A stretch of DNA of 64,000 nucleotides from Heterodontus francisci (GCF_036365525.1 NC_090373.1:13073935-13137934); one strand, 5' to 3'. Shown: positions 1-61,511, counted from the first letter of the stretch. Made by a program: numbers and translations. The notes: generated from the letters alone by a model not told the origin.

Positions 1-708
1 GAGAATCTAACCATCTCCCCTTGACATTCAATGGCATTACAATTGCTGAATCCCCCACTAAACATCCTGGGGGTCACCATTAACTGGAAACTGAACTGGA
101 TAGCCATATAAATACCGTGGCTACAAGAGCAGGTCAGAGGCTAGGAATCCTGCGGTTCGTAAATCACCTTCTGACTCCCCAAAGCCTGTCCACTATCTAC
201 AAGGCACAAGTCAGGAGTGTGATGGAATAATCTCCACTTGCTTGGATGGGTGCATATCCAACAACACTCGACACCATCTGGGACAAAGCAGTCCACTTGG
301 TTGGCACCCCATTCACTCCCTTTACCACGGACGCCCAGTGGCAACTGTGTGTACCATCTACAAGATGCAATGCAGCAACGCACCAAGGCTCCTTCGACAG
401 CACCTTCCAAACCCGCAACCTCTACCACCTAGAAGGACAAGAGCAGCAGATACATGGGAACACCACCACCTGCAAATTCCTCTCCAAGCCGCACACCATT
501 CTAACCTGCAACTATATCGGCGTTCCTTCACTTCGCTGGGTCAAGATCCTGGAACACCCTTCCTAACGGCACTGTTGGTGTACCTACCCCACATGGACTG
601 CAGCAGTTCAAGAAGGCAGCTCAGCACCACCTTCTCAAGGGCAATTACGGATGGGCAATAAATGTTGGCCTGGCCAGTGATGCCCAATTCCCATGAATTA
701 ATTTTTAA
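1..708 (+). mobile_element. 3' fragment of the tRNA-headed CR1-group LINE family (called family A here)
   Basis: Decayed RT C-terminal coding (TIYKAQVRSVME, AVCTIYKMQCSNAPRLLRQHLPNP) and tail GGGCAATTACGGATGGGCAATAAATG...CCCATGAATT matching the 3' end of 27913-31087. Confidence 0.85.
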
Positions 709-711
709 AAA

Positions 712-2415
712 AGCTAATGTCCCAGACTCCTCCATCACCCTGGGTATGTCCTATCCCACCATCCGGACAGACCCACCAGAGGTGGTGCCACTGTGGTATA
801 CAGTCAGGAGCGAGAGGCGCTGGGAGTCCTCAACACTGATTCCAGACCCCATGAATTCTCATGGCATCAGATCAAACATGGGCAAGGAAGTCTCCCGCTG
901 ATTATCACCTACAGCCCTTCCTCAGCTGATCGATCAGTGTTCCTCCATGTTGAACACCATTTTGACGAACGACTGAGGGTAGTAAGAGCACAGAATGCAC
1001 TCTGGCTGGGGGACAGATATCACTACTACTGACCAAGCTGGCCAAGACCTGAAGGGCATATCTGTCAGACTGGTTCAATGAGGAGTGTAGGAGAGCATGT
1101 TAGGAGCAGCACCAGGCATACCTAAAAATGATGATCCATCTCAGTCTCTTACTGAGGTCCCCATCATCACAGATGCCAGTATTCAGCCAATTCGATTCAC
1201 TCCACATTGATACCAAGAAATGGCTGAAGGCAGTGATACAATAAAGGCTATGGGCCCTGACAACATCCCGGCTATAGTACTGAAGACCTGTTCTCCAGTA
1301 CTGGCTGTACTCCTAGCCAAGCTATTCCATTACGGCTACAATATTGCATCTAACTGACAATGTGGAAATTTGCCCAGGCATGTCCTGTCCGCAAAAAGCA
1401 GGATGAGTCCAATCCAGCAAATTACCTCACCATTAGTCTAGTCTTAATCATCAGCAAAGTGTTGGAAGGTTTCATTGACAGTGCTGTCAAGTGGCACTCG
1501 CTGAGCAATAACCTGCTCCTCAATACTTAGTTTGGGTTCCGCCAGGACCACTTGGATCCAGACCTCATTACAGCCTTGGTTCAAACATGGACAGAAGAAC
1601 TGAATTCCATAGCTGAGGTGAGAATGACTGTCCTTGACATTTGACCAAGTTTGGCACCAAGGAGCCCGAGCAAAATTGAAGTCACTGAAACTAGTTGGAG
1701 TCATACCTAGCACAAAGGAAAAGGTTGTGGTTGTTTGAGGCCAGTCAGCCAGCTTTGGAACATCACAGCAGGAGTTCCTCAAGGTAGTTTGCTAGGCCCA
1801 ACCATCTTCAGCTGTTTCGTCTACCACCTTCCCTCCAACATCAAGGCTAGAAGTGGGGAATATTGCTTATGGTTGCACAGTGTTCAGAACCATTTCCAAT
1901 TCCCTCAGATACTGAAGCAGATCGTGCCCACATGCAGCAAGACCTGGACAACGTTCAGGCTTGGGCTGATAACTGTGGCATACAATCAGGAGGGAGAGGT
2001 GCTGGGAGTCCTGAACACTGACTTCGGAGCCCATGAAGTCTCATGGCATCAGGTCAAACATGGGCAAGGAAGTCTCCTGCTGATTCGCACCAAACAAGTG
2101 CCAGCAATGACCATCTCCAACAAAAGATAATCTTAACATCTTCCCTTGACTCGCAAGGGCATTACCATTGCTTAATCCCCCACCATCGACATCCTGGAGA
2201 TCACCATTGAGCTGACACTTAACTGGAGGCATGTAAATACTGTGGCTGTAAGAACAGGTCAGAGACTGGGATTTCTGCAATGAGTAACTTGCCTCCTGAC
2301 TCCCTAAAGCCTGTTCACCATCTACAAGGCACAAGTCTGGAGTTTGATGGAATACACTCCACTTGCCTGGATGTGTGCATCTCCAACAACACTCATCCAG
2401 GACAAAGCAGCCTGC
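712..2415 (+). mobile_element. Internally deleted family A LINE copy (APE and RT remnants)
   Basis: APE-region remnant (HEFSWHQIKHGQGSL) then RT motifs (KAMGPDNIP, GVPQGSLLGPTIFSCF); colinear with 27913-31087; stops and frameshifts. Confidence 0.85.
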
Positions 2416-3908
2416 TTTTTATTTGTCCTGTTGATGTGAGCGTCGCTGACTAGGCCAGTACTTATTGCCCATCCCTAATTGCCCTTGAGAAGGTGGTGGT
2501 GAGCTGCCTTCTTGAACTGCTGCAGTCCTTGGGTGTAGGTACACCAACACTGCTGTTAGGAAGGGAGTTCCAGGATTTTGGCCCAGTGACAGTGAAGGAG
2601 CAACGACATAATTTCAAGTCAGGATTGTGTGTGGCTTGGAGGGGAACATGCAGGTGGTGTTCCCATGCATCTGCTGCCTTTGTCCTTCTAGGTGGCAGGT
2701 GTCATGGGTTTGGAAGGTGCTGTCGAAGGAGCCTTGTTGAGCTGCTGCAGTGCATCTTGTAGAGGATACGCACTGCTGGCACTGTGCATCTGTGATGGAG
2801 GGAGTGAATGTTGAAGGTGGTGGATATGATGTCCATCAAGCGAGCTGCATTGTCATGGATGGTGTCGAGCTTCTTAAGCGTTGTTGGAGCTGCACTCATC
2901 CAGGCAAGTGGACAGTATTCCATCACATTCCTAACTTGTGCCTTGTAGATGGTGGACAGGCATTGGGGAGACAGGAGGTGAGTTACTCACCGCAGAATTC
3001 CCAGCCTCTGACTTGCCATTGTAGCCACTGTATCTATGTGACTGGTGTGCACAGTTTCTGGTCAATGTTGACCCCCCCCCCCGGGATGTTAATAGTGGGA
3101 GATTAAGCGATGGTAATGTTATTGAACGTCAAGGGGAGATAGTTAGATTCTCTCTTTGAGATGGCCATTGCCTGACAATTGTGTGGCGCGAATGTTACTT
3201 GCCACTTATCAGCCCAAGCCTGGATCTTGTCCAGGTCTTGCTGCATATGGACACGGCTGCTTCGGTATCTGAGGAGTCACGAATGGTGCTGAACATTATG
3301 CAATCATCAGCGAATATCCCCATTTTTGACCTAATGATGGAGGGGTGAAGCAGCTGAAGATGGTTGGGCCTTGGACACTATCTTGAAGAACTCCTGCAGT
3401 GGTGTCCTGGGTCTGAGATGATTGACATCCAACAATTACAACCATCTTCTTTTGTGCTAGGGATGACTCCAACCAGCGGAGAGTTTTCCCCTAATTCCCA
3501 TTGACTCCAGTTTTGCTCGGGTTCCTTGATGCCATATTCAGTCAAATGTTGCCTTGATGTCAAGGGCAGTCACTCTCACCTCACCTCTGGAGTTGAGCTC
3601 TTTTATCCATGTTTGGACCAAGGCTGTAATAAGGTCAGGTGCTGAGTGACCCTGGCGGAACCCAAACTGAGCGCCAATGAGCAGGTTATTGCTGAGCAAG
3701 TGCCATTTGATAGCACTATTGACAACCCCTTCCATCACTTTGCTCAGGGCAGTAATTGGCCAGGTTGAATTTGTCCTGCTTTTTGTGCACAGGTCATACC
3801 TGGGCAATTTTCTACATTGCTGGGTAGATGCCAGTTTTGTAGCTGTACTGGAACAGCTTGGCTAGGGGTGCAGCTAATTTTGGAGCAGAAGTCTTCAGGA
3901 CTATTGCT
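2416..3908 (-). mobile_element. 5'-truncated family A LINE copy
   Basis: Minus-strand RT (QFGFRQGHSAPDLITALVQTWIKELNSRGEVRVTALDIKATFD); reverse-complement tail at about 2416-2490. Confidence 0.85.
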
Positions 3909-4300
3909 TGATCAGCACCTTAAACATTCACTCCCTCCACCACTTACAGTGACAGCAGTGTGTACCATCTACAAGATGCACTGCAGCAACTCGCCAAGGC
4001 TCCTTCAACAGAACCTTCCAAACCTGTGACCTCTACCACCGAGAGGACAACGATAACAGATTCATGGGAACACCACCTGCAAGTTCTCCTCCAAGCCCCA
4101 CACCATCCTAATTTCACTGTCACTGGATTAGAATCCTGGAACTCATTCCCTAACAGCACTGTGGGTGTACCTACATCACATGGACTGCAGTGGTTCAAGA
4201 AGGCAACTCACCACCACCTTCTCAAGGGCAATTAGAGATGGGCAATGAATGCTGGCCTAACTAGGGGCGCTCTCATCCCATGAATGAATATTTTTCAAAA
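3909..4300 (+). mobile_element. 3' fragment of family A LINE
   Basis: SWNSFPNSTVGVPTSHGLQWFKKATHHHLLKGN* followed by the family tail CCCATGAATGAAT. Confidence 0.85.
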
Positions 4301-14811: not shown

Positions 14812-17800
14812 CACAGCAACTTGTATTCATGTGGCGCCTTTAATGTCATCAAAGGCACTCCATGAGAGTGTTATCAGAGAAAATTTGAGACAAAGCCACA
14901 AAAGGAGACAGATGACCAACAACTTGGTCGAAGAAGTAGGTTTTAAGGAGCATCTTAATGGAGGAAGTAGAGAGATGGAGAGGTTCAGGGAGGAGGTAGA
15001 GAGGGAGAGGTTCAGGGAGGAGGTAGAGAGGGAGAGATTCAGGAAGGAGGTAGAGAGAGAGAGAGGTTCAGGGAGGAGGTAGAGAGGGAGAGATTCAGGA
15101 AGGAGGTAGAGAGAGAGAGAGGTTCAGGGAGGAGGTGGAGAGAGAGAGAGGTTCAGGGAGGAGTTAGAGAGAGAGAGGTTCAGGGAGGAGGTAAAGAGAG
15201 AGAGATGTTCAGGGAGGAGGTAGAGAGAGAGAGATGTTCAGGGAGGAGGTAGAGNNNNNNNNNNNNNNNNNNNNNNNNNNNNNNNNNNNNNNNNNNNNNN
15301 NNNNNNNNNNNNNNNNNNNNNNNNNNNNNNNNNNNNNNNNNNNNNNNNNNNNNNNNNNNNNNNNNNNNNNNNNNNNNNNNNNAGAGAGAGAGAGGTTCAG
15401 GGAGGAGGTAGAGAGANNNNNNNNNNNNNNNNNNNNNNNNNNNNNNNNNNNNNNNNNNNNNNNNNNNNNNNNNNNNNNNNNNNNNNNNNNNNNNNNNNNN
15501 NNNNNNNNNNNNNNNNNNNNNNNNNNNNNNNNNNNNNNNNNNNNNNNNNNNNNNNNNNNNNNNNNNNNNNNNNNNNNNNNNNNNNNNNNNNNNNNNNNNN
15601 NNNNNNNNNNNNNNNNNNNNNNNNNNNNNNNNNNNNNNNNNNNNNNNNNNNNNNNNNNNNNNNNNNNNNNNNNNNNNNNNNNNNNNNNNNNNNNNNNNNN
15701 NNNNNNNNNNNNNNNNNNNNNNNNNNNNNNNNNNNNNNNNNNNNNNNNNNNNNNNNNNNNNNNNNNNNNNNNNNNNNNNNNNNNNNNNNNAGAGAGAGGT
15801 TCAGGGAGGAGGTAGAGAGAGAGAGAGAGGTTCAGGGAGGAGGTAGAGAGAGAGAAAGAGAGAGAGGTTCAGGGAGGAGGTAGAGAGAGAAAGAGAGAGA
15901 GGTTCAGGGAGGAGGTGGAGAGAGAGAGAGAGAGAGGTTCAGTGAGGAGGTGGAGAGAGAGAGGTTCAGGGAGGAGGTAGAGAGAGAGAGAGAGAGGTTC
16001 AGGGAGGAGATAGGGAGGAGGTAGAGAGAGAGAGAGGGAGGAGGTAGAGAGAGAGGGGGGGTTCAGGGAGGAGGTAGAGAGAGAGGTTAAGGAAGGAGGT
16101 AGAGAGAGAGAGAGAGGTGTTCAGGGCGGCGGTAGAGAGAGAGAGAGAGGTTCAGGGAGGAGGTGGAGAGAGAGAGGTTCAGGGAGGAGGTGGAGAGAGA
16201 GAGGTTCAGGGAGGAGGTGGAGAGAGAGGTTCAGGGAGGAGGTGGAGAGAGAGAGAGAGGTTCAGGGAGGAGGTGGAGAGAGAGAGAGAGGCTCAGGGAG
16301 GAGGTGGAGAGAGAGAGAGGTTCAGGGAGGAGGTGGAGAGAGAGAGAGGTTCAGGGAGGAGGTGGAGAGAGAGAGAGGTTCAGGGAGGAGGTGGAGAGAG
16401 AGAGAGAGAGTTTCAGGGAGGAGGTGGAGAGAGAGAGAGAGGTTCAGGGAGGAGGTGGAGAGAGAGAGAGAGAGGTTCAGGGAGGAGGTGGGGAGAGAGA
16501 GAGAGAGAGAGGTTCAGTGAGGAGGTGGAGAGGGAGAGATTCAGGAAGGAGGTAGAGAGAGAGAGAGGTTCAGGGAGGAGGTGGAGAGAGAGAGAGAGAG
16601 AGAGAGGTTCAGGGAGGAGTTAGAGAGAGAGAGGTTCAGGGAGGAGGTAAAGAGAGAGAGATGTTCAGGGAGGAGGTAGAGAGAGAGAGATGTTCATGGA
16701 GGAGGTAGAGAGAGGGAGGTTCAGGGAGGAGGTAGAGAGAGGGAGGTTCAGGGAGGAGGTAGAGAGAGGGAGGTTCAGGGAGGAGGTAGAGAGAGAGAGA
16801 GGTTCAGGGAGGAGGTGGGGAGAGAGAGAGAGGGAGAGATTCAGGAAGGAGGTAGAGAGAGAGAGAGGTTCAGGGAGGAGGTAGAGAGGGAGAGATTCAG
16901 GAAGGAGGTAGAGAGAGAGAGAGGTTCAGGGAGGAGGTGGAGAGAGAGAGAGGTTCAGGGAGGAGTTAGAGAGAGAGAGGTTCAGGGAGGAGGTAAAGAG
17001 AGAGAGATGTTCAGGGAGGAGGTAGAGAGAGAGAGATGTTCAGGGAGGAGGTAGAGNNNNNNNNNNNNNNNNNNNNNNNNNNNNNNNNNNNNNNNNNNNN
17101 NNNNNNNNNNNNNNNNNNNNNNNNNNNNNNNNNNNNNNNNNNNNNNNNNNNNNNNNNNNNNNNNNNNNNNNNNNNNNNNNNNNNAGAGAGAGAGAGGTTC
17201 AGGGAGGAGGTAGAGAGANNNNNNNNNNNNNNNNNNNNNNNNNNNNNNNNNNNNNNNNNNNNNNNNNNNNNNNNNNNNNNNNNNNNNNNNNNNNNNNNNN
17301 NNNNNNNNNNNNNNNNNNNNNNNNNNNNNNNNNNNNNNNNNNNNNNNNNNNNNNNNNNNNNNNNNNNNNNNNNNNNNNNNNNNNNNNNNNNNNNNNNNNN
17401 NNNNNNNNNNNNNNNNNNNNNNNNNNNNNNNNNNNNNNNNNNNNNNNNNNNNNNNNNNNNNNNNNNNNNNNNNNNNNNNNNNNNNNNNNNNNNNNNNNNN
17501 NNNNNNNNNNNNNNNNNNNNNNNNNNNNNNNNNNNNNNNNNNNNNNNNNNNNNNNNNNNNNNNNNNNNNNNNNNNNNNNNNNNNNNNNNNNNNNNNNNAG
17601 AGAGAGGTTCAGGGAGGAGGTAGAGAGAGAGAGAGAGGTTCAGGGAGGAGGTAGAGAGAGAGAAAGAGAGAGAGGTTCAGGGAGGAGGTAGAGAGAGAAA
17701 GAGAGAGAGGTTCAGGGAGGAGGTGGAGAGAGAGAGAGAGAGAGGTTCAGTGAGGAGGTGGAGAGAGAGAGGTTCAGGGAGGAGGTAGAGAGAGAGAGAG

Positions 17801-20800
17801 AGAGGTTCAGGGAGGAGATAGGGAGGAGGTAGAGAGAGAGAGAGGGAGGAGGTAGAGAGAGAGGGGGGGTTCAGGGAGGAGGTAGAGAGAGAGGTTAAGG
17901 AAGGAGGTAGAGAGAGAGAGAGAGGTGTTCAGGGCGGCGGTAGAGAGAGAGAGAGAGGTTCAGGGAGGAGGTGGAGAGAGAGAGGTTCAGGGAGGAGGTG
18001 GAGAGAGAGAGGTTCAGGGAGGAGGTGGAGAGAGAGGTTCAGGGAGGAGGTGGAGAGAGAGAGAGAGGTTCAGGGAGGAGGTGGAGAGAGAGAGAGAGGC
18101 TCAGGGAGGAGGTGGAGAGAGAGAGAGGTTCAGGGAGGAGGTGGAGAGAGAGAGAGGTTCAGGGAGGAGGTGGAGAGAGAGAGAGGTTCAGGGAGGAGGT
18201 GGAGAGAGAGAGAGAGAGTTTCAGGGAGGAGGTGGAGAGAGAGAGAGAGGTTCAGGGAGGAGGTGGAGAGAGAGAGAGAGAGGTTCAGGGAGGAGGTGGG
18301 GAGAGAGAGAGAGAGAGAGGTTCAGTGAGGAGGTGGAGAGGGAGAGATTCAGGAAGGAGGTAGAGAGAGAGAGAGGTTCAGGGAGGAGGTGGAGAGAGAG
18401 AGAGAGAGAGAGAGGTTCAGGGAGGAGTTAGAGAGAGAGAGGTTCAGGGAGGAGGTAAAGAGAGAGAGATGTTCAGGGAGGAGGTAGAGAGAGAGAGATG
18501 TTCATGGAGGAGGTAGAGAGAGGGAGGTTCAGGGAGGAGGTAGAGAGAGGGAGGTTCAGGGAGGAGGTAGAGAGAGGGAGGTTCAGGGAGGAGGTAGAGA
18601 GAGAGAGAGGTTCAGGGAGGAGGTGGGGAGAGAGAGAGAGGGAGAGATTCAGGAAGGAGGTAGAGAGAGAGAGAGGTTCAGGAAGGAGGTAGAGAGAGAG
18701 AGAGGTTCAGGGAGGAGGTGGAGAGAGAGAGAGAGAGAGAGGTTCAGGGAGGAGTTAGAGAGAGAGAGGTTCAGGGAGGAGGTAAAGAGAGAGAGATGTT
18801 CAGGGAGGAGGTAGAGAGAGAGAGAGATGTTCAGGGAGGAGGTAGAGAGAGAGGGGGAGGTTCAGGGAGGAGGTAGAGAGAGAGAGAGGTTCAGGGAGGA
18901 GGTAGAGAGAGAGAGGTTCAGGGAGGAGGTAGAGAGAGAGAGGTTCAGGGAGGAGGTAGAGAGAAAGAGAGAGAGGTTCAGGGAGGAGGTAGAGAGAGAG
19001 GTTCAGGGAGGAGGTAGAGNNNNNNNNNNNNNNNNNNNNNNNNNNNNNNNNNNNNNNNNNNNNNNNNNNNNNNNNNNNNNNNNNNNNNNNNNNNNNNNNN
19101 NNNNNNNNNNNNNNNNNNNNNNNNNNNNNNNNNNNNNNNNNNNNNNNNNNNNNNNNNNNNNNNNNNNNNNNNNNNNNNNNNNNNNNNNNNNNNNNNNNNN
19201 NNNNNNNNNNNNNNNNNNNNNNNNNNNNNNNNNNNNNNNNNNNNNNNNNNNNNNNNNNNNNNNNNNNNNNNNNNNNNNNNNNNNNNNNNNNNNNNNNNNN
19301 NNNNNNNNNNNNNNNNNNNNNNNNNNNNNNNNNNNNNNNNNNNNNNNNNNNNNNNNNNNNNNNNNNNNNNNNNNNNNNNNNNNNNNNNNNNNNNNNNNNN
19401 NNNNNNNNNNNNNNNNNNNNNNNNNNNNNNNNNNNNNNNNNNNNNNNNNNNNNNNNNNNNNNNNNNNNNNNNNNNNNNNNNNNNNNNAGNNNNNNNNNNN
19501 NNNNNNNNNNNNNNNNNNNNNNNNNNNNNNNNNNNNNNNNNNNNNNNNNNNNNNNNNNNNNNNNNNNNNNNNNNNNNNNNNNNNNNNNNNNNNNNNNNNN
19601 NNNNNNNNNNNNNNNNNNNNNNNNNNNNNNNNNNNNNNNNNNNNNNNNNNNNNNNNNNNNNNNNNNNNNNNNNNNNNNNNNNNNNNNNNNNNNNNNNNNN
19701 NAGAGAGATAGAGAGGTTCAGGGAGGAGGTAGAGAGAGAGAGAGAGAGAGAGGTTCAGGGAGGAGGTAGAGAGAGAGAGAGAGAGGTTCAGGGAGGAGGT
19801 AGAGAGAGAGAGGTTCAGGGAGGAGGTAGAGAGAGAGAGGTTCAGGGAGGAGGTAGAGAGAGAGAGAGAGAGAGGTTCAGGGAGGAGGTAGAGAGAGAGA
19901 GAGAGAGGTTCAGGGAGGAGGTAGAGNNNNNNNNNNNNNNNNNNNNNNNNNNNNNNNNNNNNNNNNNNNNNNNNNNNNNNNNNNNNNNNNNNNNNNNNNN
20001 NNNNNNNNNNNNNNNNNNNNNNNNNNNNNNNNNNNNNNNNNNNNNNNNNNNNNNNNNNNNAGAGAGAAAGAGAGAGAGGTTCAGGGAGGAGGTGGAGAGA
20101 GAGAGAGAGAGAGGTTCAGTGAGGAGGTGGAGAGAGAGAGGTTCAGGGAGGAGGTAGAGAGAGAGAGAGAGAGGTTCAGGGAGGAGATAGGGAGGAGGTA
20201 GAGAGAGAGAGAGGGAGGAGGTAGAGAGAGAGGGGGGGTTCAGGGAGGAGGTAGAGAGAGAGGTTAAGGAAGGAGGTAGAGAGAGAGAGAGAGGTGTTCA
20301 GGGCGGCGGTAGAGAGAGAGAGAGAGGTTCAGGGAGGAGGTGGAGAGAGAGAGGTTCAGGGAGGAGGTGGAGAGAGAGGTTCAGGGAGGAGGTGGAGAGA
20401 GAGAGAGAGGTTCAGGGAGGAGGTGGAGAGAGAGAGAGAGGCTCAGGGAGGAGGTGGAGAGAGAGAGAGAGGCTCAGGGAGGAGGTGGAGAGAGAGAGAG
20501 GTTCAGGGAGGAGGTGGAGAGAGATGTTCAGGGAGGAGGTGGAGAGAGAGAGAGGTTCAGGGAGGAGGTGGAGAGAGAGAGAGGTTCAGGGAGGAGGTGG
20601 AGAGAGAGAGAGAGAGTTTCAGGGAGGAGGTGGAGAGAGAGAGAGAGGTTCAGGGAGGAGGTGGAGAGAGAGAGAGAGGTTCAGGGAGGAGGTGGGGAGA
20701 GAGAGAGAGAGAGAGGTTCAGTGAGGAGGTGGAGAGGGAGAGATTCAGGAAGGAGGTAGAGAGAGAGAGAGGTTCAGGGAGGAGGTGGAGAGAGAGAGAG

Positions 20801-23800
20801 AGAGAGGTTCAGGGAGGAGTTAGAGAGAGAGAGGTTCAGGGAGGAGGTAAAGAGAGAGAGATGTTCAGGGAGGAGGTAGAGAGAGAGAGATGTTCAGGGA
20901 GGAGGTAGAGAGAGGGAGGTTCAGGGAGGAGGTAGAGAGAGGGAGGTTCAGGGAGGAGGTAGAGAGAGGGAGGTTCAGGGAGGAGGTAGAGAGAGAGAGA
21001 GGTTCAGGGAGGAGGTGGGGAGAGAGAGAGAGGGAGAGATTCAGGGAGGAGGTAGAGAGAGAGAGGGAGGTTCAGGGAGGAGGTAGAGAGAGAGAGAGGT
21101 TCAGGGAGGAGGTAGAGAGAGAGAGAGAGAGGTTCAGGGAGGAGGTAGAGAGAGAGAGGTTCAGGGAGGAGGTAGAGAGAAAGAGAGAGAGGTTCAGGGA
21201 GGAGGTAGAGAGAGAGGTTCAGGGAGGAGGTAGAGAGAGATAGGTTCAGGGAGGAGGTAGAGAGAGAGAGAGAGGTTCAGGGAGGAGGTAGAGAGAGAGA
21301 GAGAGGTTCAGGGAGGAGGTAGAGAGAGAGAGAGAGGTTCAGGGAGGAGGGAGAGAGAGAGAGAGGTTCAGGGAGGAGGTAGAGAGAGGTTCAGGGAGGA
21401 GGTAGAGAGAGAAAGAGAGAGAGGTTCAGGGAGGAGGTAGAGAGAGAGAGAGAGAGAGGTTCAGTGAGGAGGTAGAGAGAAAGAGAGAGAGGTTCAGGGA
21501 GGAGGTAGAGAGAGAGGTTCAGGGAGGAGGTAGAGAGAGATAGGTTCAGGGAGGAGGTAGAGAGAGAGAGAGAGGTTCAGGGAGGAGGTAGAGAGAGAGA
21601 GAGAGGTTCAGGGAGGAGGGAGAGAGAGAGAGAGGTTCAGGGAGGAGGTAGAGAGAGGTTCAGGGAGGAGGTAGAGAGAGAAAGAGAGAGAGGTTCAGGG
21701 AGGAGGTAGAGAGAGAGAGAGAGAGAGGTTCAGTGAGGAGGTAGAGAGAGAGAGGTTCAGGGAGGAGGTAGAGAGAGAGAGAGAGAGGTTCAGGGAGGAG
21801 GTAGAGAGAGAGAGAGAGGTTCAGGGAGGAGATAGAGAGAGAGGTTCAGGGAGGAGATAGAGAGAGAGGTTCAGGGAGGAGGTAGAGAGAGAGAGAGGTT
21901 CAGGGAGGAGAGAGAGAGAGGGGGGGTTCAGGGAGGAGGTAGAGAGAGAGAGGTTAAGGAAGGAGGTAGAGAGAGAGAGAGAGGTGTTCAGGGCGGCGGT
22001 AGAGAGAGAGAGAGAGGTTCAGGGAGGAGGTGGAGAGAGAGAGGTTCAGGGAGGAGGTGGAGAGAGAGAGGTTCAGGGAGGAGGTGGAGAGAGAGGTTCA
22101 GGGAGGAGGTGGAGAGAGAGAGAGAGGTTCAGGGAGGAGGTGGAGAGAGAGAGAGAGGTTCAGGGAGGAGGTGGAGAGAGAGAGGTTCAGGGAGGAGGTG
22201 GAGAGAGAGAGGTTCAGGGAGGAGGTGGAGAGAGAGAGAGGTTCAGGGAGGAGGTGGAGAGAGAGAGAGAGAGTTTCAGGGAGGAGGTGGAGAGAGAGAG
22301 AGAGGTTCAGGGAGGAGGTGGAGAGAGAGAGAGAGAGAGGTTCAGGGAGGAGGTAGAGAGAGAGAGAGAGGTTCAGGGAGGAGGTGGAGAGGGAGAGATT
22401 CAGGAAGGAGGTAGAGAGAGAGAGAGGTTCAGGGAGGAGGTGGAGAGAGAGAGAGAGAGAGGTTCAGGGAGGAGGTAAAGAGAGAGAGATGTTCAGGGAG
22501 GAGGTAGAGAGAGAGAGAGATGTTCAGGGAGGAGGTAGAGAGAGGGAGGTTCAGGGAGGAGGTAGAGAGAGGGAGGTTCAGGGAGGAGGTAGAGAGAGGG
22601 AGGTTCAGGGAGGAGGTAGAGAGAGAGAGAGAGGTTCAGGGAGGAGGTAGAGAGAGAGAGAGAGGTTCAGGGAGGAGGTTGAGAGAGAGAGGTTCAGGGA
22701 GGAGGTGGAGAGAGAGGTTCAGGGAGGAGGTGGAGAGAGAGAGAGAGGTTCAGGGAGGAGGTGGAGAGAGAGAGAGAGAGGTTCAGGGAGGAGGTGGAGA
22801 GAGAGAGAGAGAGGTTCAGGGAGGAGGTGGAGAGAGAGAGAGAGGTTCAGGGAGGAGGTGGAGAGAGAGAGAGAGAGGTTCAGGGAGGAGGTGGAGAGAG
22901 AGAGAGAGAGGTTCAGGGAGGAGGTGGAGAGAGAGAGAGAGAGGTTCAGGGAGGATGTGGAGAGAGAGAGAGAGAAGTTCAGGGAGGAGGTGGAGAGAGA
23001 GAGAGAGAGGTTCAGGGAGGAGGTGGAGAGAGAGAGAGAGAGAGAGGTTCAGGGAGGAGGTGGAGAGAGAGAGAGAGAGGTTCAGGGAGGAGGTGGAGAG
23101 AGAGAGAGAGGTTCAGGGAGGAGGTGGAGAGAGAGAGAGAGAGAGGTTCAGGGAGGAGGTGGAGAGAGAGAGAGGTTCAGGGAGGAGGTGGAGAGAGAGA
23201 GAGAGAGGTTCAGGGAGGAGGTGCAGAGAGAGAGAGAGGTTCAGGGAGGAGGTGGAGAGAGAGAGAGAGAGGTTCAGGGAGGAGGTGGAGAGAGAGAGAG
23301 AGAGAGGTTCAGGGAGGAGGTGGAGACAGAGAGAGAGAGGTTCAGGGAGGAGGTGGAGACAGAGAGAGAGAGGTTCAGGGAGGAGGTGGAGACAGAGAGA
23401 GAGAGGTTCAGGGAGGAGGTGCAGAGAGAGAGAGAGGTTCAGGGAGGAGGTGCAGAGAGAGAGAGAGGTTCAGGGAGGAGGTGGAGAGAGAGAGAGGTTC
23501 AGGGAGGAGGTGGAGAGAGAGAGAGTGAGGGGTTTATGGAGGAGGTGGAGAGAGAGAGAGGGGTTCAGGGAGGAGGTAGAGAGAGAGGTTCAGGGAGGAG
23601 GTAGAGAGAGAGGTTCAGGGAGGAGGTAGAGAGAGAGGTTCAGAGAGGAGGTGGAGAGAGAGAGAGAGGTTCAGGGAGGAGGTGGAGAGAGAGAGAGAGG
23701 TTCAGGGAGGAGGTGGAGAGAGAGAGAGAGGTTCAGGGAGGAGGTGGAGAGAGAGAGAGAGGTTCAGGGAGGAGGTGGAGAGAGAGAGAGGTTCAGGGAG

Positions 23801-26800
23801 GAGGTGGAGAGAGAGAGAGAGGTTCAGGGAGGAGGTGGAGAGAGAGAGAGAGGTTCAGGGAGGAGGTGGAGAGAGAGAGAGAGGTTCAGGGAGGAGGTGG
23901 AGAGAGAGAGAGAGGTTCAGGGAGGAGGTGGAGAGAGAGAGAGAGGTTCAGGGAGGAGGTGGAGAGAGAGAGAGAAGTTCAGGGAGGAGGTGGAGAGAGA
24001 GAGCGAGGTTCAGGGAGGAGGTAGAGAGAGAGGTTCAGGGAGGAGGTGCAGAGAGAGAGAGAGGTTCAGGGAGGAGGTGGAGAGAGAGAGAGTGAGGGGT
24101 TTATGGAGGAGGTGGAGAGAGAGAGGTTCAGGGAGGAGGTGGAGAGAGAGAGAGGTTCAGGGAGGAGGTGGAGAGAGAGAGAGAGGTTCAGGGAGGAGGT
24201 GGAGAGAGAGAGAGAGGTTCAGGGAGGAGGTGGAGAGAGAGAGAGAGAGAGGTTCAGGGAGGAGGTGGAGATGGAGAGAGAGAGAGAGAGGTTCAGGGAG
24301 GAGGTGGAGAGAGAGGCGTTTAGGGAGGAGGTGGAGAGAGAGAGAGGCGTTTAGGGAGGAGGTGGAGAGAGAGAGAGGCGTTTAGGGAGGAGGTGGAGAG
24401 AGAGAGAGGTTCAGGGAGGAGGTGGAGAGAGAGAGGTTCAGGGAGGAGGTGGAGAGAGAGAGAGAGAGGTTCAGGGAGGAGGTGGAGAGAGAGAGAGAGG
24501 CGTTCAGGGAGGAGGTGGAGAGAGAGAGAGAGGTTCAGGGAGGAGGTCGAGAGAGATGGGTTCAGGGAGGAGGTGGAGAGAGAGAGGTTTCGGGAGGAGG
24601 TAGCGAGAGAGAGAAGGGTTCAGGGAGGAGGTGGAGAGAGAGAGAGAGGTTCAGGGAGGAGGTGGAGAGAGAGAGAGAGGTTCAGGGAGGAGGTGGAGGT
24701 GGAGAGAGAGAGAGAGGTTCAGGGAGGAGGTGGAGAGAAAGAGAGGGAGAGGTTCAGGGAGGAGGTGGAGAGAGAGAGAGAGAGAGGTTCAGGGAGGAGG
24801 TAGAGAGANNNNNNNNNNNNNNNNNNNNNNNNNNNNNNNNNNNNNNNNNNNNNNNNNNNNNNNNNNNNNNNNNNNNNNNNNNNNNNNNNNNNNNNNNNNN
24901 NNNNNNNNNNNNNNNNNNNNNNNNNNNNNNNNNNNNNNNNNAGAGAGGCGTTTAGGGAGGAGGAGGAGAGAGAGAGGCGTTTAGGGAGGAGGTGGAGAGA
25001 GAGAGAGAGAGGTTCAGGGAGGAGGTGGAGAGAGAGAGGTTCAGGGAGGAGGTGGAGAGAGAGAGGTTCAGGGAGGAGGTGGAGAGAGAGAGAGGTTCAG
25101 GGAGGAGGTGGAGAGAGAGAGAGAGAGGTTCAGGGAGGAGGTGGAGAGAGAGAGGCGTTTAGCGAGGAGGTGGAGAGAGAGAGAAAGGTTCAGGGAGGAG
25201 GTCGAGAGAGAGGTTTAGGGAGGAGGTAGCGAGAGAGAGAAGGGTTCAGGGAGGAGGTGGAGAGAGAGAGAGAAGGGTTCAGGGAGGAGGTGGAGAGAGA
25301 GAGAGAGAGAGGTTCAGGGAGGAGGTGGAGAGAGAGATAGAGAGAGGTTCAGGGAGGAGGTGGAGATGGAGAGAGAGAGAGGTTCAGGGAGGAGGTGGAG
25401 AGAGAGAGAGGTTCAGGGAGGAGGTGGAGAGAGAGAGAGAGAGGTTCAGGGAGGAGGTGGAGAGAGAGAGGCGTTTAGGGAGGAGGTGGAGAGAGAGAGA
25501 GAGAGGTTCAGGGAGGAGGTGGAGAGAGAGAGGCGTTTAGGGAGGAGGTGGAGAGAGAGAGAGAGGTTCAGGGAGGAGGTAGAGAGAGAGAGGTTTAGGG
25601 AGGAGGTAGCGAGAGAGAGAGGGGTTCAGGGAGGAGGTGGAGAGAGAGAGGTTTAGGGAGGAGGTAGCGAGAGAGAGGTTTAGGGAGGAGGTAGCGAGAG
25701 AGANNNNNNNNNNNNNNNNNNNNNNNNNNNNNNNNNNNNNNNNNNNNNNNNNNNNNNNNNNNNNNNNNNNNNNNNNNNNNNNNNNNNNNNNNNNNNNNNN
25801 NNNNNNNNNNNNNNNNNNNNNNNNNNNNNNNNNNNNNNNNNNNNNNNNNNNNNNNNNNNNNGGAGAGAGAGAGGCGTTTAGGGAGGAGGTGGAGAGAGAG
25901 AGAGAGAGGTTCAGGGAGGAGGTGTAGAGAGAGAGGCGTTTAGGGAGGAGGTGGAGAGAGAGAGAGAGGTTCAGGGAGGAGGTAGAGAGAGAGAGGTTTA
26001 GGGAGGAGGTAGCGAGAGAGAGAGGGCTTCAGGGAGGAGGTGGTGAGAGAGAGGTTTAGGGAGGAGGTAGCGAGAGAGANNNNNNNNNNNNNNNNNNNNN
26101 NNNNNNNNNNNNNNNNNNNNNNNNNNNNNNNNNNNNNNNNNNNNNNNNNNNNNNNNNNNNNNNNNNNNNNNNNNNNNNNNNNNNNNNNNNNNNNNNNNNN
26201 NNNNNNNNNNNNNNNNNNNNNNNNNNNNNNNNNNNNNNNNNAGATGGAGAGAGAGAGAGGTTCAGGGAGGAGGTGGAGAGTGAGAGAGGTTCAGGGAGGA
26301 GGTGGAGAGAGAGAGAGAGAGGTTCAGGGAGGAGGTGGAGAGAGAGAGGTGTTTAGGGAGGAGGTGGAGAGAGAGAGAGAGAGGTTCAGGGAGGAGGTAG
26401 AGAGAGAGAGGTTCAGGGAGGAGGTAGAGAGAGAGAGGTTTAGGGAGGAGGAAGCGAGAGAGAGAGGGGTTCAGGGAGGAGGTGGAGAGAGAGAGAGAGG
26501 TTCAGGGAGGAGGTCGAGAGAGAGAGGTTCAGGGAGGAGGTAGAGAGAGAGAGGGGTTCAGGGAGGAGGTAGAGAGAGAGAGAGGTTTAGGGAGGAGGTA
26601 GAGAGTGAGAGAGGAGGTAGAGAGAGAGAGAGTGAGTGGTTCAGGGAGGAGGTAGAGAGAGAGAGTGAGTGGTTTAGGGAGGAGGTAGAGAGAGAGAGTG
26701 AGTGGTTCAGGGAGGAGGTAGAGAGAGAGAGTGAGTGGTTCAGGGAGGAGGTAGAGAGAGAGAGTGAGTGGTTCAGGGAGGAGGTAGAGAGAGAGAGGGG

Positions 26801-27360
26801 GGTTCAGGGAGGAGGTAGAGAGAGAGAGGGGGGTTCAGGGAGGAGGTAGAGAGAGAGAGTGAGTGGTTCAGGGAGGAGGTAGAGAGAGAGAGTGAGTGGT
26901 TCAGGGAGGAGGTAGAGAGAGAGAGGGGGGTTCAGGGAGGAGGTAGAGAGAGAGAATGAGTGGTTCAGGGAGGAGATAGAGAGAGAGTGAGTGGTTCAGG
27001 GAGGAGGTAGAGAGAGAGAGGGGGGTTCAGGGAGGAGGTAGAGAGAGTGAGTGGTTCAGGGAGGAGATAGAGAGAGGGAGAGGTTCAGGGAGGGAATTCC
27101 ACAGCTTTGGGCCTGAATAGCTGAAGACACAGCAGCCAATGATGAAGCAATTAAAATCAGGGATGCACAAGAGACCAGAATTGGAGGAGCACAGACATCT
27201 GAAGACAAGGCTGAGAATTTTAAAACTGAATTGTCAAACTAGGATTGATGGCGGAACGGGACTTGGTGTGAGCATGGATAGAGGCACCAGAGTTCTTGAG
27301 CTGATATAGGGTGAAAGATGGGAGGCTATCCAGGGCAGCGTTGGAATAGTCAAGTCTCCG
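14812..27360 (-). mobile_element. L2 3' fragment interrupted by a 12 kb satellite
   Basis: L2 tail (CAACTTGTATTCATGTGGCGCCTTTAATG) at about 14817; body stops near 14990 and resumes at 27091 (AGGGAATTCCACAGCTTTGGGCC...CAAGAGACCAGAATTGGAGG), colinear with the reverse complement of the L2 at 32345-33030. Confidence 0.85.
14960..27092 (+). repeat. Polypurine compound satellite, unit GGTTCAGGGAGGAGGT(A/G)+(GA)n, about 25-37 bp
   Basis: Hundreds of tandem units seen directly; variant blocks, about 1.8 kb higher-order duplication, several N runs. Confidence 0.97.
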
Positions 27361-27804
27361 GCCACAATTCTCATACATTTATAAATCCTTCCATTGTACC
27401 TCCAAAACTTACTGAACTTCACACCTTCCACCCTTCTGCTTTTGACCTACTCTGCATTTCTGCTTTCTCCACCTTCCTTCACCATCTGTCGCAGACCTTC
27501 AGCTAAAATGCCATTTCACTCTTGAATTCTCTTCCTAAAAACCTTTGCATTGTTATATCTATGCCCAACTACCTCAAAACCTACTAGTGAAAGTCGCAGG
27601 CATGGACAAATTTAGGAGCACTTTACCAAAATGTAGAGGAACCGAAAAAAATCGATATATCAGAGAAAGGCTGATGAAGCAAATCAATATGTACACTTCT
27701 ATGTCACTTCTACAACTATCGCTGCCCTCTTCTGGTTCTGGCCTGTTGCGCATCTTGTTTTTCATCGTTCCATCATTGCCGGCCGTGCTTTCAGCTGCAT
27801 CAAC

Positions 27805-30800
27805 CCGTAGGAACAGGAGTAGGCCACTCAGTCCCTCATGCCTGTTCTGCCATTCATTGAGCTTGTGGCCAACCTGTATCTTAACTCGATTCACCCACCT
27901 TGGCTTCATATCTTTTTTTATTCATTCATGGGACGTGAGCATCGCTGGCTCGGCCAGCATTTATTGCCCTTCCCTAATTGCCCTCGAGAAGGTGGTGATG
28001 AGCCATCGCCTGGAATCGCTGCAGTCCTTGGGATGTAGGTACACCCACAGTGCTGCTAGGAAGGGAGTTCCAGGATTTTGACCCAGTGTCAGTGAAAGAA
28101 TAGCGATGTAGTTCCAAGTCAGGATGGTGTGTGGCTTGGACGGGATCTTGCAGGTGGTGGTGTTCCCATGCATCTGCTGCCTTTGTCCTTCTAAGTGGTA
28201 GAGGTTGTGGGTTTGGAAGGTGCTGTCGAAGGAGATGTGGTGAGTTACTGTAGTGCATCTTGTAGATGATACGCACTGCTGCCACTTCGTGTTGGTGGTG
28301 AAGGAATTGAATGTTGAAGATGGTGGATGGGGCGCCAATCAAGAGATCCGCTTTATCCTCAATGGTGTCGAGCTTCCTGAATGTTGTTGAAGCTGCACTC
28401 ATTCAGGCAAGTGGAGAATATTCCATCACACTCCTGACTTGTGCCTTGCAGATGGCAGACAGGCATTGGGGAGTCAGGAGGTGAGTTACTCGCCGCAGAA
28501 TTCCCAGCCTCTGACCTGCTCTTGTAGCCACAGCATTTATGTGGCTTGTTCAGTATCGGTTTCTGGTTAATGGTAACCCCCCCAGGATGGGATTCAGCGA
28601 TGGTAATGCCATTGAACATCAAGGGGAGATGGTTAGATTCTATCTTATTTGAGATGATCATTGCCTGGCACTTGTGTGGCGTGAATATTACTTGCCAATT
28701 ATCAACCCAAGCCTGAATGTTGTCGAGGTCTTGTTGCATATGGACATGGGCTGTTTCAGTATCTGAACAGTCACGAATGGTACTGAACATTGTGCAAACA
28801 TCAGCGAACATCCCCACTTCTGACCTTATGATGGAGGGAAAGTCTTTGATGAAGCAGCTGAAGATGGTTGGACCTAGGACTCCTACCTTCAGGAACTCGA
28901 ACAGTGATGTCCTGGGACTGAGATGATTGACCTCCAACAACCACAACCATCTTCCTTTGTGCTAGGTATGACTCCAGCAGCGGAAGGTTTTCTCCCTGAT
29001 TGACATTGACTCCAGTTTTGCTAGGACTCCTTGATGCCATACTCAGTCAAATGCTGCCTTGATGTCAAGGGCAGTCGCTCTCACCTCACCTCTTGAGTTC
29101 AGCTCTTTTGTCCATGTTTGAACCAAGGCTGTAATGAGGTCAGGAGCTGAGTGGCCCTGGCGGAATCCAAACTGAGCATCAGTGCACAGGTGCTGCTTGA
29201 TCGCACTGTTGATGACAGCTTCCATCACTTTACTGATGATTGAGAGTAGACTGATAGGGAGGTAATTGGCCGGGTTGGACTTGTCCTGCTCTTTGTGTAC
29301 AGGACATACCTGGGAAATTTTCCACATTGCCGGGTAGATGCCAGTGTTGCAGCTATACTGGAACAGCTTGGCTAGGGGCACGGCAAGTTCTGGAGCACAG
29401 GTCTTCAGTACTATTGCCAGAATGTTGTCGGGGCCCATAGCCTTTGCAGTATCCAGTGCCTTCAGTCGTTTCTTGATATCATGTGGAGTGAATCGGATTG
29501 GCTGAAGTCTGGCATCTGTGATACTGGGGACCTCACGAGGAGGCCAAGATGGATCATCCACTCGGCACTTCTGGCTGAAGATGGGTGCAAATACTTCAGC
29601 CTTGCTTTTGCACTGATGTGCTGGACTTCCCCCATTGTTAAGAATGGGGATATTTGTGGAGACTTCTCTTCCTGTTAGTTGCTTAATTGTTCACCATTCA
29701 CGACTGGATGTGGCAGGACTGCAGAGCTTAGATCTGATCCGTCGGTTATAGGATCAGTTAGCTCTGTCTATCGCATGCTGGTTCTGCTGTTTGGCATGCA
29801 TGTAGTTCTGGGTTGTAGTTTCACCCGGCTGACACCTCATTTTTAGGTATGCCTGGAGCTGCTCCTGGAATGCCGTCTCCTGCTGTCTTCATTGAACCAG
29901 GGTTTGTCCCCAGCTTAATGGTAATGGTAGAGTGGGGGGATATGCCAGGCCATGAGGGTTAATTCTGCTGCTGCTGATGGCCCACAACACCTCATGAATG
30001 CCCAATTTTGAGTTGCTAGATCTGTTGGAAATCTATCCCATTCAGCACGGTGGTAGTGCGACACAAATCAATGGTGGGTATCCTCAATGTGAGGACAGTT
30101 CTTCGGCTCCACAAGGACTGTGCAGTGGTCACTTCTACCAATACTGTCATGGGCAAAGGCATCTGTGACAGATTAGTGAGGACGAGGTCAAGTAGGTTTT
30201 TCCCCAATTGTTGGTTCCCTCACCACCTACCACAGACCCAGTCTGGCAGCTATGTCCTTTAGGTCTTGGCCAGTAATGGTGCTACTGAGCCACTCTTGGT
30301 GATGGACATTGAAGTGCCCCACCCAGAGTACATTCTGTGCCCTTGCTACCTTTCGTGCTTCTTCCAATTGGTATTCAACATGGAGGGACAGTAAGTGATA
30401 ATCAGCAGGAGGTTTCCTTGCCCATGTTTGGGCTGATGCCATGAGACTTTATGGGGTCCAGAATCAATTTTGAAAGCTCCCAGGGCAACTCCTCCCACCT
30501 GTATACCACTGGGCTGCCATCTCTCGTGGCTCTGTCCTTCCCGTGGGACACAACATACCCAGGGATGGTGGTCAGGGACATTGTAAGGTATTCCTTGAGT
30601 ATGGCTGTGTTAGGCTGTTGCTTGACTAGTCTGTAGGCAGTTCTCCCAATTTTGGCACAAGCCCCCAGATGTTAGTAAGAACTTTGTAGTATTGATGGAG
30701 CTGGCTGTGGCATTGTTATTTCCAGTGCCTACATCACTGCTGGGTGGTCCATCCTGTTTCATTCCTTCTATTAGGCTTTAGATGCAACTAAATGGCTTGC

Positions 30801-31755
30801 TAGGCCATTTACGATTCAACCACATTACTGTGGGTCTGGAATCACATGTAGGCCAGACCAGGTAAGGGTGGCAGATTTCCTTCCCTATAGGGCATTTGTA
30901 AACCAGATGGGTGGGTTTTTTACAACAATTGACAATGGTTTCATGATCACCACAAGACTAGCTTTTTAATTGTAGCTTAATTGATTTCAAATGTCACCAT
31001 CTGCCATAGTGGGATTCAAACCCATATTCCCAGAGCATTAGCCTAGGCTTACGGGTCCAGTGACATTACCACTACACCACAATCTCCGCCTTATTACACC
31101 CTTCTCCAGCAAAAATTTTGTGAATCTCAAATTTAAAATTATTAATTGACCTAGCATACACAGCTTTTGTGGGAGAGTTCCAGACTTCTACCACCCTTTG
31201 CATGAAGAAGTATTTCCAAACTTCTCTTTGAATGGCCTGGCTCTGATGTTAAGGTTATGTCTTCTTGTCCTGAATTCCTCTGCCAGCAGAAAAATATTCT
31301 CTGTAGCGTATCAAGTCTTTTCAAAATCCTTAACCTTCCATATTATAGGGAGTGAGTACAAGCCTAGTTTGTGATCTCGCTTCATAATTTAACCCTTGGA
31401 GCGCTGGTAACGTTCTGGTGAATCTGCACAGCAATCCTTCCAAGCCCAATATGTCCTTTCTATGTGGTGCCCAGAACTGTACACAGTGCTCCAGATGTGG
31501 TCTAACCAGGGTTTTGTATAGCTGTTGTAAGATTTCCCTTTATATTCTAGCCCTCTCGTCGTAAAGGCTAAAATTCCATGAGCATTTTTGATTTTTTGTG
31601 TGCTTGACTACTACATTTTAGTGATCTGTGTCTATGGACCTCTAAATCTCTCTGAATCCCACTGTTTCATCATTTAAATAATAAGCAGATTTTATCCTTC
31701 TTTAGTCCAAAATGGATGACCTCACGCTTGACCATCTGCCACAGTTTTGCCTACA
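27805..31755 (-). mobile_element. CR1 (HER1-like) 3' fragment split by the family A LINE (host parts 27805-27912 and 31088-31755)
   Basis: AGGAACAGGAGTAGGCC...CCTTGGCTTCATATC continues after the insertion as GCCTTATTACACCCTT...AATCTCAAATTTAAAATTATTAATTGACC, colinear with the uninterrupted copy at 61512-61920. Confidence 0.75.
27913..31087 (-). mobile_element. Apparently full-length family A LINE: tRNA-derived head, single APE-RT ORF (decayed), short tail
   Basis: Head 31087-30790 with A box TGGTGTAGTGG and B box GGTTTGAATCC; APE from about 30685 (TNIWGLVPKLGEL, VLWVGHFNVHHQEWL, NLLDLVLTN); RT (KAMGPDNI, QFGFRQGHSAPD, ALDIKAAFD, LGPTIFSCF, MFADVC); tail CCCATGAATGAATAAAAAAA. Confidence 0.9.
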
Positions 31756-42731: not shown

Positions 42732-43873
42732 TGTGGTCACGCAGTGAAGCTAAAAACATTCTTGGCTGCACTGTTTGTTTCAAATTTTATTGTGATGCAG
42801 AAAAACACATAACTCAGTTAAATAGCAAAATACAAATTAAACACTGCAGACATCAAGAAATAAGTGAACACAGAAGGTAAAGCCTGGAGACGTGTTGGTG
42901 TAGTGGTAATGTCACTGCACTAGTAATCCAGAGGCCCAGGCTAGTGCTCTGGAGACACGGGTTCAAATCGATGGTGGAATTTGAATTCAATTAATCTGGA
43001 ATTAAAAAGCTAGTCTAATGGTGACCATGTAACCATTGTCAATTGTCGAAAAACCCAAATGGTTATTAATGTCCTTTAGGGATGGAAATCTGCTGTCCTA
43101 ACCTGGTCTGGCCAACATATGACTCCAGATCCAGTTGACTCTTAGAATGCCCTCTGAAATGGCCTAGCAAGCCATTCAGTTCAAGGGCAATTAGGGATGG
43201 GCAATAAATGCTGGCCTAGCCAGTGACTCCCACATCCCATGAATGAATAAAAAAAAGTGCAAAAAGTTAAATTACATTTAATCAAAATACAAAACTTAAA
43301 CATTAATTATATTTAGATAATGGTTTCGGTGCAACAAGTCAACAGAATAAATGCTTAAATAAAATACTTACGATAGGCGATAGGAGACAAGCTGCTTTCG
43401 ATCCTTGCTCCTCGAAGCTGCCTGGACACAGGTGAGGTTGTCTTTGGTCTTTCTCAGATATCTTCTTCCAGTCTGACTTCTTTTTCTGAGAGTCTCTGTG
43501 GTTCCTGCTGTGTCTGTCTCTGCCCGTTCTGGTTTTTTAGGACCCTGCTGTTGTATCTTTTTTCCAGAGCTGCCTATGTGCCAAATTGCAAAATATGTGC
43601 AGCTTGCCCTTCCTGACCTGATAATAATTGATAATTTTTCCTAACCTGATTGGCCTTCTCCTGTCCCACCCCAGAATTAATGTCAGTCTTGCAACAGAAC
43701 TTTCATAAAACAACATCTTTAAAAACAAATCCAACAATCCTTTTAATAAAAGCCTTCTACATAAATGACATTAAACATATTTTACAGTCTTTCCAATCAA
43801 AGCATGAATTTTAAATATATTTACACCTTTTTAATCAGAATATAAATTTAGACATATTTTACGTGTTCTCACA
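42732..43873 (-). mobile_element. Possible solo LTR
   Basis: TGTG...CACA ends, near-TSD GTGC/GAGC, minus-strand AATAAA near 42788. Confidence 0.4.
42886..43256 (+). mobile_element. Complete tRNA-derived SINE made of the family A LINE head and tail
   Basis: A box TGGTGTAGTGG, B box GGTTCAAATCG; body matches the reverse complement of 30790-31087; from about 43181 matches the LINE tail (TCAAGGGCAATTAGGGATGGGCAATAAATG...GAATGAATAAAAAAAA). Confidence 0.92.
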
Positions 43874-60300: not shown

Positions 60301-61511
60301 TTGAGGGTAATGCAGTTGATGTAGTCTACATGGACTTTAGTAAGGCTTTTGATCAGATCCCGCATGGGAGATTGGTTAAGAAGGTAAAGGCCCATGGGAT
60401 CCAGGGCAATTTGGCAAATTGGATCCAAAATTGGCTTAGTGCCGGGAAACAGAGGGTGATGGTCGAGGGTTGTTTTTGCTGGTGGAAGCCTGTGACCAGT
60501 GATGTACCACAGGGATCGGTGCTGGGACCCTTACTGTTTGTAGTGTACATTAATGATTTAGATGTGAATGTAGGAGGTATGATAAGTACGTTTGCAGATG
60601 ACACGAAAATTGGTAGTGTTGTAAATAGTGAGGAGGAAAGCCTTAGATTAAAAGATGCTATAGATGGGCTGGTAAGATAGACAGAGGAGTGACAAATGGA
60701 ATTTAATCCTGAGAAGTGTGAGATGATGCATTTTGGGAGGAATTACAAGACAAGGGAATATACAATGGGTGGTAGGACCCTAGGAAGTACAGAGGGTCAG
60801 AGGGACCTTGGTGTACTTGTCCATAGATTACTGAAGGCAGCAGCACAGGTAGATAAGGTGGTTAGGAAGGCATATAGGATACTTGCCTTTATTAGTCGAG
60901 GCATAGAATATAAGAGCAGGGAGGTTATGAAGTAGCTGTATAAAATGCTAGTTAGGCCACAGCTGGGAGTACTGTGAACAGTTCTGGTCACCACACTATA
61001 GGAATGTTGTGATTGTCCTGGAGAGGGTGCACAGGAGATTCACCAGGGTGTTGCCTGAGCTGGAGAATTTCAGCTATGAAGAGAGATTGAAAAGACTAGG
61101 GTTGTTTTCTTTAGAACAGAGAAGGATGAGGGGGATATGATTGAGGTATGCAAAATTATGAGGGACATTGATAGGTTAGACAGGAAGAGCCTTTTTCCCT
61201 TAGCAGAGGGGTCAATAACCAGGGGGCATAGATTTAAGGTAAGAGGCAGGAGGTTAAGAGGGGATTTGAGGAAAAAAAATTTCACCCAGAGGGTGGTTGG
61301 AATCTGGAACGCACTGCGTGAAGAGGTGGTAGAGGCAGGAACCCTCACAACATTTAAGAAGTATTTAGATGAGCACTTGAAACGCCATAGCATGCAAGGC
61401 TATGGGCCAAATGCTGGAAAATGGGACCAGAATAGTTAGATGCTTGATGGCCGGCACAGACACGTTGGGCCGACGGGCCTGTTTCTTTGCTGTATAACTC
61501 TATGATTCTAT
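60301..61511 (+). mobile_element. CR1 (HER1-like) 3' 1.2 kb, relatively young
   Basis: MDFSKAFDQIPHGRL, VPQGSVLGPLLFVVYINDL, FADDTK; (ATTCTAT)-type tail; AACAG on both flanks as TSD. Confidence 0.92.

Follow-up and report, generated by a model that had tools for sequence, protein, structure and literature searches.

The Zenon LINE of elasmobranchs, a retrotransposon of the CR1 group, carries at its 5' end a tRNA-like head with A and B boxes, followed by a coding strand that lacks RNA polymerase III (Pol III) stop motifs, and Pol III probably makes its full-length RNA, from end to end. The A and B boxes, the fixed 5' end and the sense-only loss of stop motifs are indeed what would be expected under Pol III read-through. 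The copy considered here lies in a stretch of 64,000 nt from Heterodontus francisci (GCF_036365525.1 NC_090373.1:13073935-13137934), hereafter the window. The Zenon family itself is known, and its head and terminator-free coding strand appear to be undescribed. The words "tRNA", "polymerase" and "promoter" are absent from the main text of the study devoted to elasmobranch Zenon, and "tRNA" and "polymerase" from its supplement (PMC13343379). No description of a tRNA-headed or Pol III-transcribed shark LINE was found in the accessible literature, and subscription papers and Repbase or Dfam notes may mention the head.

By its first 400 nt, which match published Zenon consensuses on comparison by eye, the window element is an elasmobranch Zenon LINE. 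It occupies 27913-31087 on the minus strand, is full-length and decayed (about 12% from the family column majority), shares the 5' sequence of the published consensuses and was inserted into a repeat that we take to be a CR1-type 3' fragment. Reading along the minus strand, on which all its parts lie, the tRNA-like head (31000-31087) includes the A box at 31069-31079 (TGGTGTAGTGG; family TGGCGTAGTGG at about +11) and the B box at 31012-31022 (GGTTTGAATCC; family GGTTCGAATCC at about +75). It is followed by a body (30810-30965) which sequence comparison finds common to the LINE and to the genome's SINE, and by an in-frame mini-ORF, ATG GCC TAG, just upstream of the long frame (30800-30808). The APE-RT frame (27974-30799), broken in this copy, has near its start a conserved second ATG (30760-30762), one base out of frame. 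The 3' UTR (27920-27973), with AATAAA at 27960-27965, a short hairpin at 27944-27958 and a GAATGAAT end, leads into an A7 tail (27913-27919).

At the family level, the element measures about 3.25-3.3 kb and has a single APE-RT frame of 975 codons by column majority, in which Pfam RVT_1 and Exo_endo_phos_2 are both found. No ORF1 was found, the leader of about 300 nt before the APE frame holding short uORFs only. The elasmobranch Zenon elements already published likewise have a single APE-RT frame, no ORF1, a poly-A tail and a length of about 3.3 kb (Stuart et al., 2026; PMC13343379). Lacking ORF1 and separate from CR1 in the tree, the family is not a canonical vertebrate CR1, for which an esterase ORF1, or descent from CR1 elements that had an ORF1, would be expected. 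A quick RT tree, built without labelled Zenon references, placed it apart from shark CR1 and L2 and beside unlabelled relatives (support 87), and its identity to co-resident CR1 is about 24%. Its best representative protein match was a moth RT, the ESM Atlas returned generic RT clusters only, and no relative was found among viral contigs. Pieces of the Zenon frame, at 67-88% identity, also occur in five shark gene models (P0005, P0029, P0035, P0037 and P0040), which probably reflect annotation capture of repeats.

The mobile unit is 3.3 kb long and comprises head, body, single APE-RT frame and tail. Genome searches gave 88 scored loci, 32 of them full-length (a start no more than 40 nt away being required); 27 of these 32 start within 4 nt, and their flanks are unrelated to each other. 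Among copies retrieved through the leader/ORF junction, 18 of 29 reach back to 19 nt or less from the head start. At the other extremity, most of 82 3' ends have GAAT followed by a short A run, generally of 5-12 nt. In a sample of 60 evenly picked stretches, the family and its SINE made up 46.9 of 600 kb, about 8% of the sample. The window also holds rearranged family fragments in both orientations at 1-4290 (1-702, plus; 712-2415, plus, with internal deletions; 2433-3908, minus; 3909-4290, plus).

The head with its A and B boxes belongs to the Zenon element itself and is conserved. Both boxes are kept in five elasmobranch species while the sequence between them varies, and ARAGORN called a tRNA-Thr(AGT) in 11 of 31 younger full-length copies. 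It made no call in the window copy, whose head gave nothing meaningful in Rfam either; a young head gave a weak tRNA-clan match (E 0.52). All seven published elasmobranch Zenon consensuses, from white shark, whale shark, catshark, spiny dogfish and a stingray (PMC13343379 supplement), have the same head and no TTTT in the 400 bases visible, these sequences of 2.9-3.3 kb having been compared by eye over their first 400 nt only. By contrast, the three published consensuses from hagfish and coelacanth, whose 5' ends may include flank, have no head and contain TTTT, and the invertebrate relatives compared are likewise headless and carry runs of four T (T4). Among 32 loci of other relatives, 25 were scored and none of these had a B box or a tRNA upstream, though many are 5'-incomplete.

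The same head and body, joined directly to the LINE tail, form the genome's SINE, and matching joints occur in public contigs. One such SINE, SacSINE1-like, lies in the window at 42896-43248 on the plus strand and has the Zenon 3' UTR in common at 43181-43248. By its motif, the shared body is a putative Deu domain. Its position agrees with that of the Deu domain in SacSINE1, and SacSINE1-like SINEs are reported in chimaera and coelacanth (PMC5499810). Since such SINEs occur in these two lineages and head-bearing Zenon is seen in elasmobranchs only, capture of a SINE front by the LINE is likelier than the reverse, and Zenon is thus likely to have taken its head from a Deu-type SINE. The Deu-SINEs SacSINE1 and LmeSINE1 are likewise built of a tRNA head containing both boxes, a central body and a 3' tail, and their partner has been named, on tail similarity only, as L2-2_CM or a CR1-4_DR-like element (PMC5499810, PMC3747384, PMC4824008). 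Unlike them, Zenon is neither short nor non-coding, with 3.3 kb in total and a conserved coding frame of 2.9 kb.

The first-pass annotation had claimed that 27920-31087 contains no TTTT on the sense strand of the element and about 13 on the antisense strand. The recount agreed: the plus strand has 13 TTTT runs and no AAAA, so that four T in a row occur nowhere on the minus, or sense, strand; the AAAA-free gap on the plus strand extends over 27652-31110. It had further described the other family copies of the window as nearly free of T4 and the CR1 at 60301-61511 as having at least five, in line with our counts of one sense T4 in total, at 960, for five other copies (2416-3908 being scored as 2433-3908) and of five for that CR1. 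The column-majority ORF of the family also holds no T4 run, as the annotation's reading predicted. With a sense T content of 22% in the window copy, mononucleotide shuffling gave 5.9 T4 expected vs 0 seen (P0 0.003) and dinucleotide shuffling 3.5 vs 0 (P0 0.024). Zero T4 is thus rare in dinucleotide shuffles, but T4 alone fails against permuted synonymous codons (0 vs 2.1 expected in the column-majority ORF, P 0.086). The absence of T4 from the window copy is by itself a modest signal; the family-level signal is strong.

Since the copies descend from one ladder-like lineage, T avoidance amounts to one evolutionary observation, and permutation of synonymous codons was run on one sequence each. 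With T4 alone weak for one lineage, the case rests on a wider depletion of T clusters and on controls. T4-only statistics were given up as the main test for this weakness, and a P value drawn from pooled-copy T4 counts (5 vs 101) was dropped as pseudoreplicated. The column-majority ORF has 4 TTT runs vs 12.9 expected, with 0 of 5000 permutations as low, and two natural copies concur (P 0.001 and 0.003); windows with four T in 5 nt number 1 vs 10.8 expected (P 0.0014). Runs of A, C and G are not depleted, and the antisense strand has 15 T4, which confines the depletion to the sense strand. At synonymous NNY third positions, T is used in 47% of cases with no neighbouring T (156/335), in 32% with one (46/146), in 11% with two (4/38) and in 0% with three or more (0/2), whereas the same measure in the headless relative L131, 43% identical, gives 48, 48, 37 and 45%.

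Human Pol III is stopped by interrupted T runs as well, namely T3VT2, T2VT3, T3VT, TVT3, T2AT2 and T2CT2, T2GT2 being almost inactive (PMC3141230). Counting these active motifs together with T4, the 975-codon ORF contains none, vs 6.1 expected (P 0.0005), in a test that was picked after T depletion had been noticed and that applies human rules which may differ in shark. A base-frequency null gave 9.2 motifs expected and 0 of 3000 draws at zero. The sole survivor in the ORF is one TTGTT (T2GT2), of the type reported inactive. Pyrimidine tracts, AATAAA, the 5' splice motif and ATTTA, all relevant to Pol II, are not depleted. The depletion is T-specific, sense-specific, dependent on context at synonymous sites, and includes interrupted T motifs. 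From T4 the first-pass annotation had argued for selection in favour of Pol III read-through; the test it relied on is underpowered, and the wider pattern in the sequence supports selection against Pol III terminators.

A coding strand poor in T and rich in C might be devoid of TTTT by mere chance. T makes up 20% of the ORF, in which only about 2 T4 are expected, and Phe stands at 1.8-2.0% vs 4.3-4.7% in homologues, along with a general shift to GC-rich amino acids. Such an accident is very improbable, since the terminator-motif and TTT results above were obtained with codon usage preserved, since T usage depends on neighbouring T, and since L136, close to Zenon in composition (T 23%, C 28.5%), has 7 T4 in 1.7 kb. 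Low Phe was itself dropped as a sign of terminator avoidance, being confounded by the amino-acid shift. Two relatives, P0062 and P0010, on contigs of 3.2-3.8 kb, also have low Phe (2.3-2.4%).

Other LINEs served as controls: 20 shark CR1 loci have 217 T4 in 42.4 kb and 20 L2 loci, whose extents may include neighbouring repeats, 268 in 55.9 kb, so that both tolerate about 5 T4 per kb. Four CR1 ORF segments were at permutation expectation, as were seven of nine intact relative ORFs from metagenome and genome contigs, which have 3 to 28 T4 each. The other two, from the distant, similar headless relatives L147 (P 0.055) and L148 (P 0.037), are mildly low in T4. L147, L148 and L149, all on metagenome contigs, are two-ORF LINEs in which sense T4 is mildly depleted; upstream of the match they have no B box.

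In Zenon, T4 runs arise only after insertion. Internal T4 is absent from 25 of the 32 full-length copies; the other seven share out 8 runs, all private, four of which result from the decay of one CpG. T4 density climbs with copy age (0.25, 0.41, 0.74 and 1.61 per kb), and 13 T4 were observed vs 18 in simulations of neutral decay (range 8-28). The majority sequences of old and young copies have 134 differences. Over the first 750 codons, 60 differ synonymously and 28 nonsynonymously, and both ORFs are free of terminators. This synonymous excess, with terminators absent from both, indicates that coding and read-through were kept together.

These observations bear on the possibility that a Pol II promoter lies inside the captured SINE body, T avoidance then reflecting either a relic of past Pol III use or selection against U-rich signals in the RNA (proteins that bind U-tracts, decay or RT slippage). 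For autonomous LINEs, transcription by Pol II is assumed (PMC5786205), and many young heads have between their boxes, at about +56, a TATTTCT holding two sub-optimal terminator types. This motif, the mild depletion in L147 and L148, and the want of a near in-frame AUG were counted against the Pol III reading, and the first two would suit a Pol II promoter. We nevertheless consider the latter unlikely. Co-resident CR1 and L2 tolerate T4, Pol II-relevant and ARE motifs are undepleted, AATAAA is present at +118 and +342 of the element, and A-runs are undepleted, contrary to the slippage version. Moreover, the A and B boxes persist in five species despite the variable sequence between them, and over the 134 differences of the master lineage no ORF terminator was gained.

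Under the preferred Pol III reading, in which Zenon would be a type 2 transcription unit, TFIIIC and TFIIIB would act on the A and B boxes, and Pol III would start about 10 nt upstream of the A box, read 3.3 kb and halt at the first T-run of the flank. Such a length far exceeds that of usual Pol III products, which is a point against it. Assembled contigs from four runs, guessed to be RNA, cover the whole element, and carry no information on strand, start or polymerase. The RNA of a master copy that gained a terminator would be cut short and lack the 3' recognition end, and such a copy would leave no descendants. The APE-RT would bind the 3' UTR, insert the RNA by target-primed reverse transcription, and mobilise the SINE as well; target-primed reverse transcription with 3' UTR binding is established for CR1-group LINEs.

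Translation of this RNA, probably uncapped, would then involve an unusual start. The first in-frame ATG of the APE-RT frame is codon 285, and none lies near the frame start. Of 77 matches to the junction region, counted with SINEs and decayed copies, 43 have the mini-ORF ATG GCC TAG ahead of the frame; it occurs in all three age classes and in six of the seven published elasmobranch consensuses. All five published species have the second, out-of-frame ATG, which lies about as far in as the Met with which the relative P0062 starts, followed there by a similar arginine-rich segment; this ATG opens a 46-codon uORF overlapping the endonuclease start (L066:1794-1941), whose peptide had no convincing match among the proteins compared. 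Downstream of this ATG, 90 nt show hardly any variation outside CpG, and the spacer before it is variable in length. Folding of leader pieces revealed no unusual stability and no structured IRES-like fold (z +1.07 and -0.47). Ribosomes may reinitiate past the mini-ORF, begin at a non-AUG codon, or use the conserved out-of-frame AUG and then shift by -1.

Labour might instead be split, with Pol III making the template RNA and the protein coming, in trans, from capped Pol II read-through of copies lying in host genes. Uncapped RNA would then need no translation, the missing in-frame AUG near the frame start would be accommodated, and recognition of the 3' end in trans is plausible since the SINE has the same 3' end. 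We regard this as improbable, slightly more so than a Pol II promoter in the body: a capped RNA would face 9 upstream AUGs before the conserved out-of-frame AUG, and the replicating lineage retains an open 975-codon frame with synonymous excess, which suggests that the copied RNA is the coding RNA. We favour, with somewhat less assurance than Pol III transcription itself, the view of Zenon as an autonomous SINE: a 3.3-kb coding RNA would be made wholly by Pol III, and its translation would require neither cap nor in-frame AUG, the LINE having taken the promoter of its parasite before sharks and rays split, and its coding sequence having been purged of terminators since.

Translation of LINE RNA without a normal cap has precedent in the 5'-ribozyme LINEs (R2, RTE and L1Tc), which differ in that their RNA comes from Pol I or Pol II and has no internal A/B-box promoter. 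Other known systems share single features with Zenon. RTE-1_DAn and elements related to it (Repbase; PMC5786205) are also LINEs containing tRNA-like sequence; they belong to a different clade and are cited as a source of accidental hits, in a passage that does not discuss position, promoter role or terminators. Beyond that mention, no further paper on a LINE with tRNA-like sequence was found in the literature searched. Lepidopteran Zenon and its internally deleted derivative Persaeus (PMC6740152) likewise associate a single-ORF CR1-group LINE with a short element sharing both ends; Persaeus itself lacks tRNA homology and a Pol III promoter.

According to the working rule, LINEs use Pol II and SINEs cannot encode protein (PMC5786205). 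If our reading is true, a family that makes up several per cent of shark genomes breaks this rule and provides a natural Pol III mRNA, which would be categorically new if both Pol III transcription and translation hold. It would also offer a test case for long-range Pol III processivity, for cap-independent initiation and for the role of the conserved SINE body, so far unexplained, and would illustrate a flow of modules from SINE to LINE. In practical terms, Zenon offers a natural template for long terminator-free Pol III expression.

Regarding 3' ends, T4 or longer precedes the A tail in 16 of the 67 ends that have any T, against 37 of 263 control A-runs. This T-run was dropped as a candidate built-in terminator, because the near-constant combined length of T and A fits A-to-T conversion after insertion. 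Individual tails (L062, L065, L073 and others) range from T1A10 through T5A6 to T11 at a roughly constant total length, and this range suggests that conversion proceeds from the 5' side. Elsewhere in the window, the longest run-free stretch is a 12-kb degenerate tandem array at 14900-27150, purine-rich (GA-type) and partly masked, with no A4 or T4.
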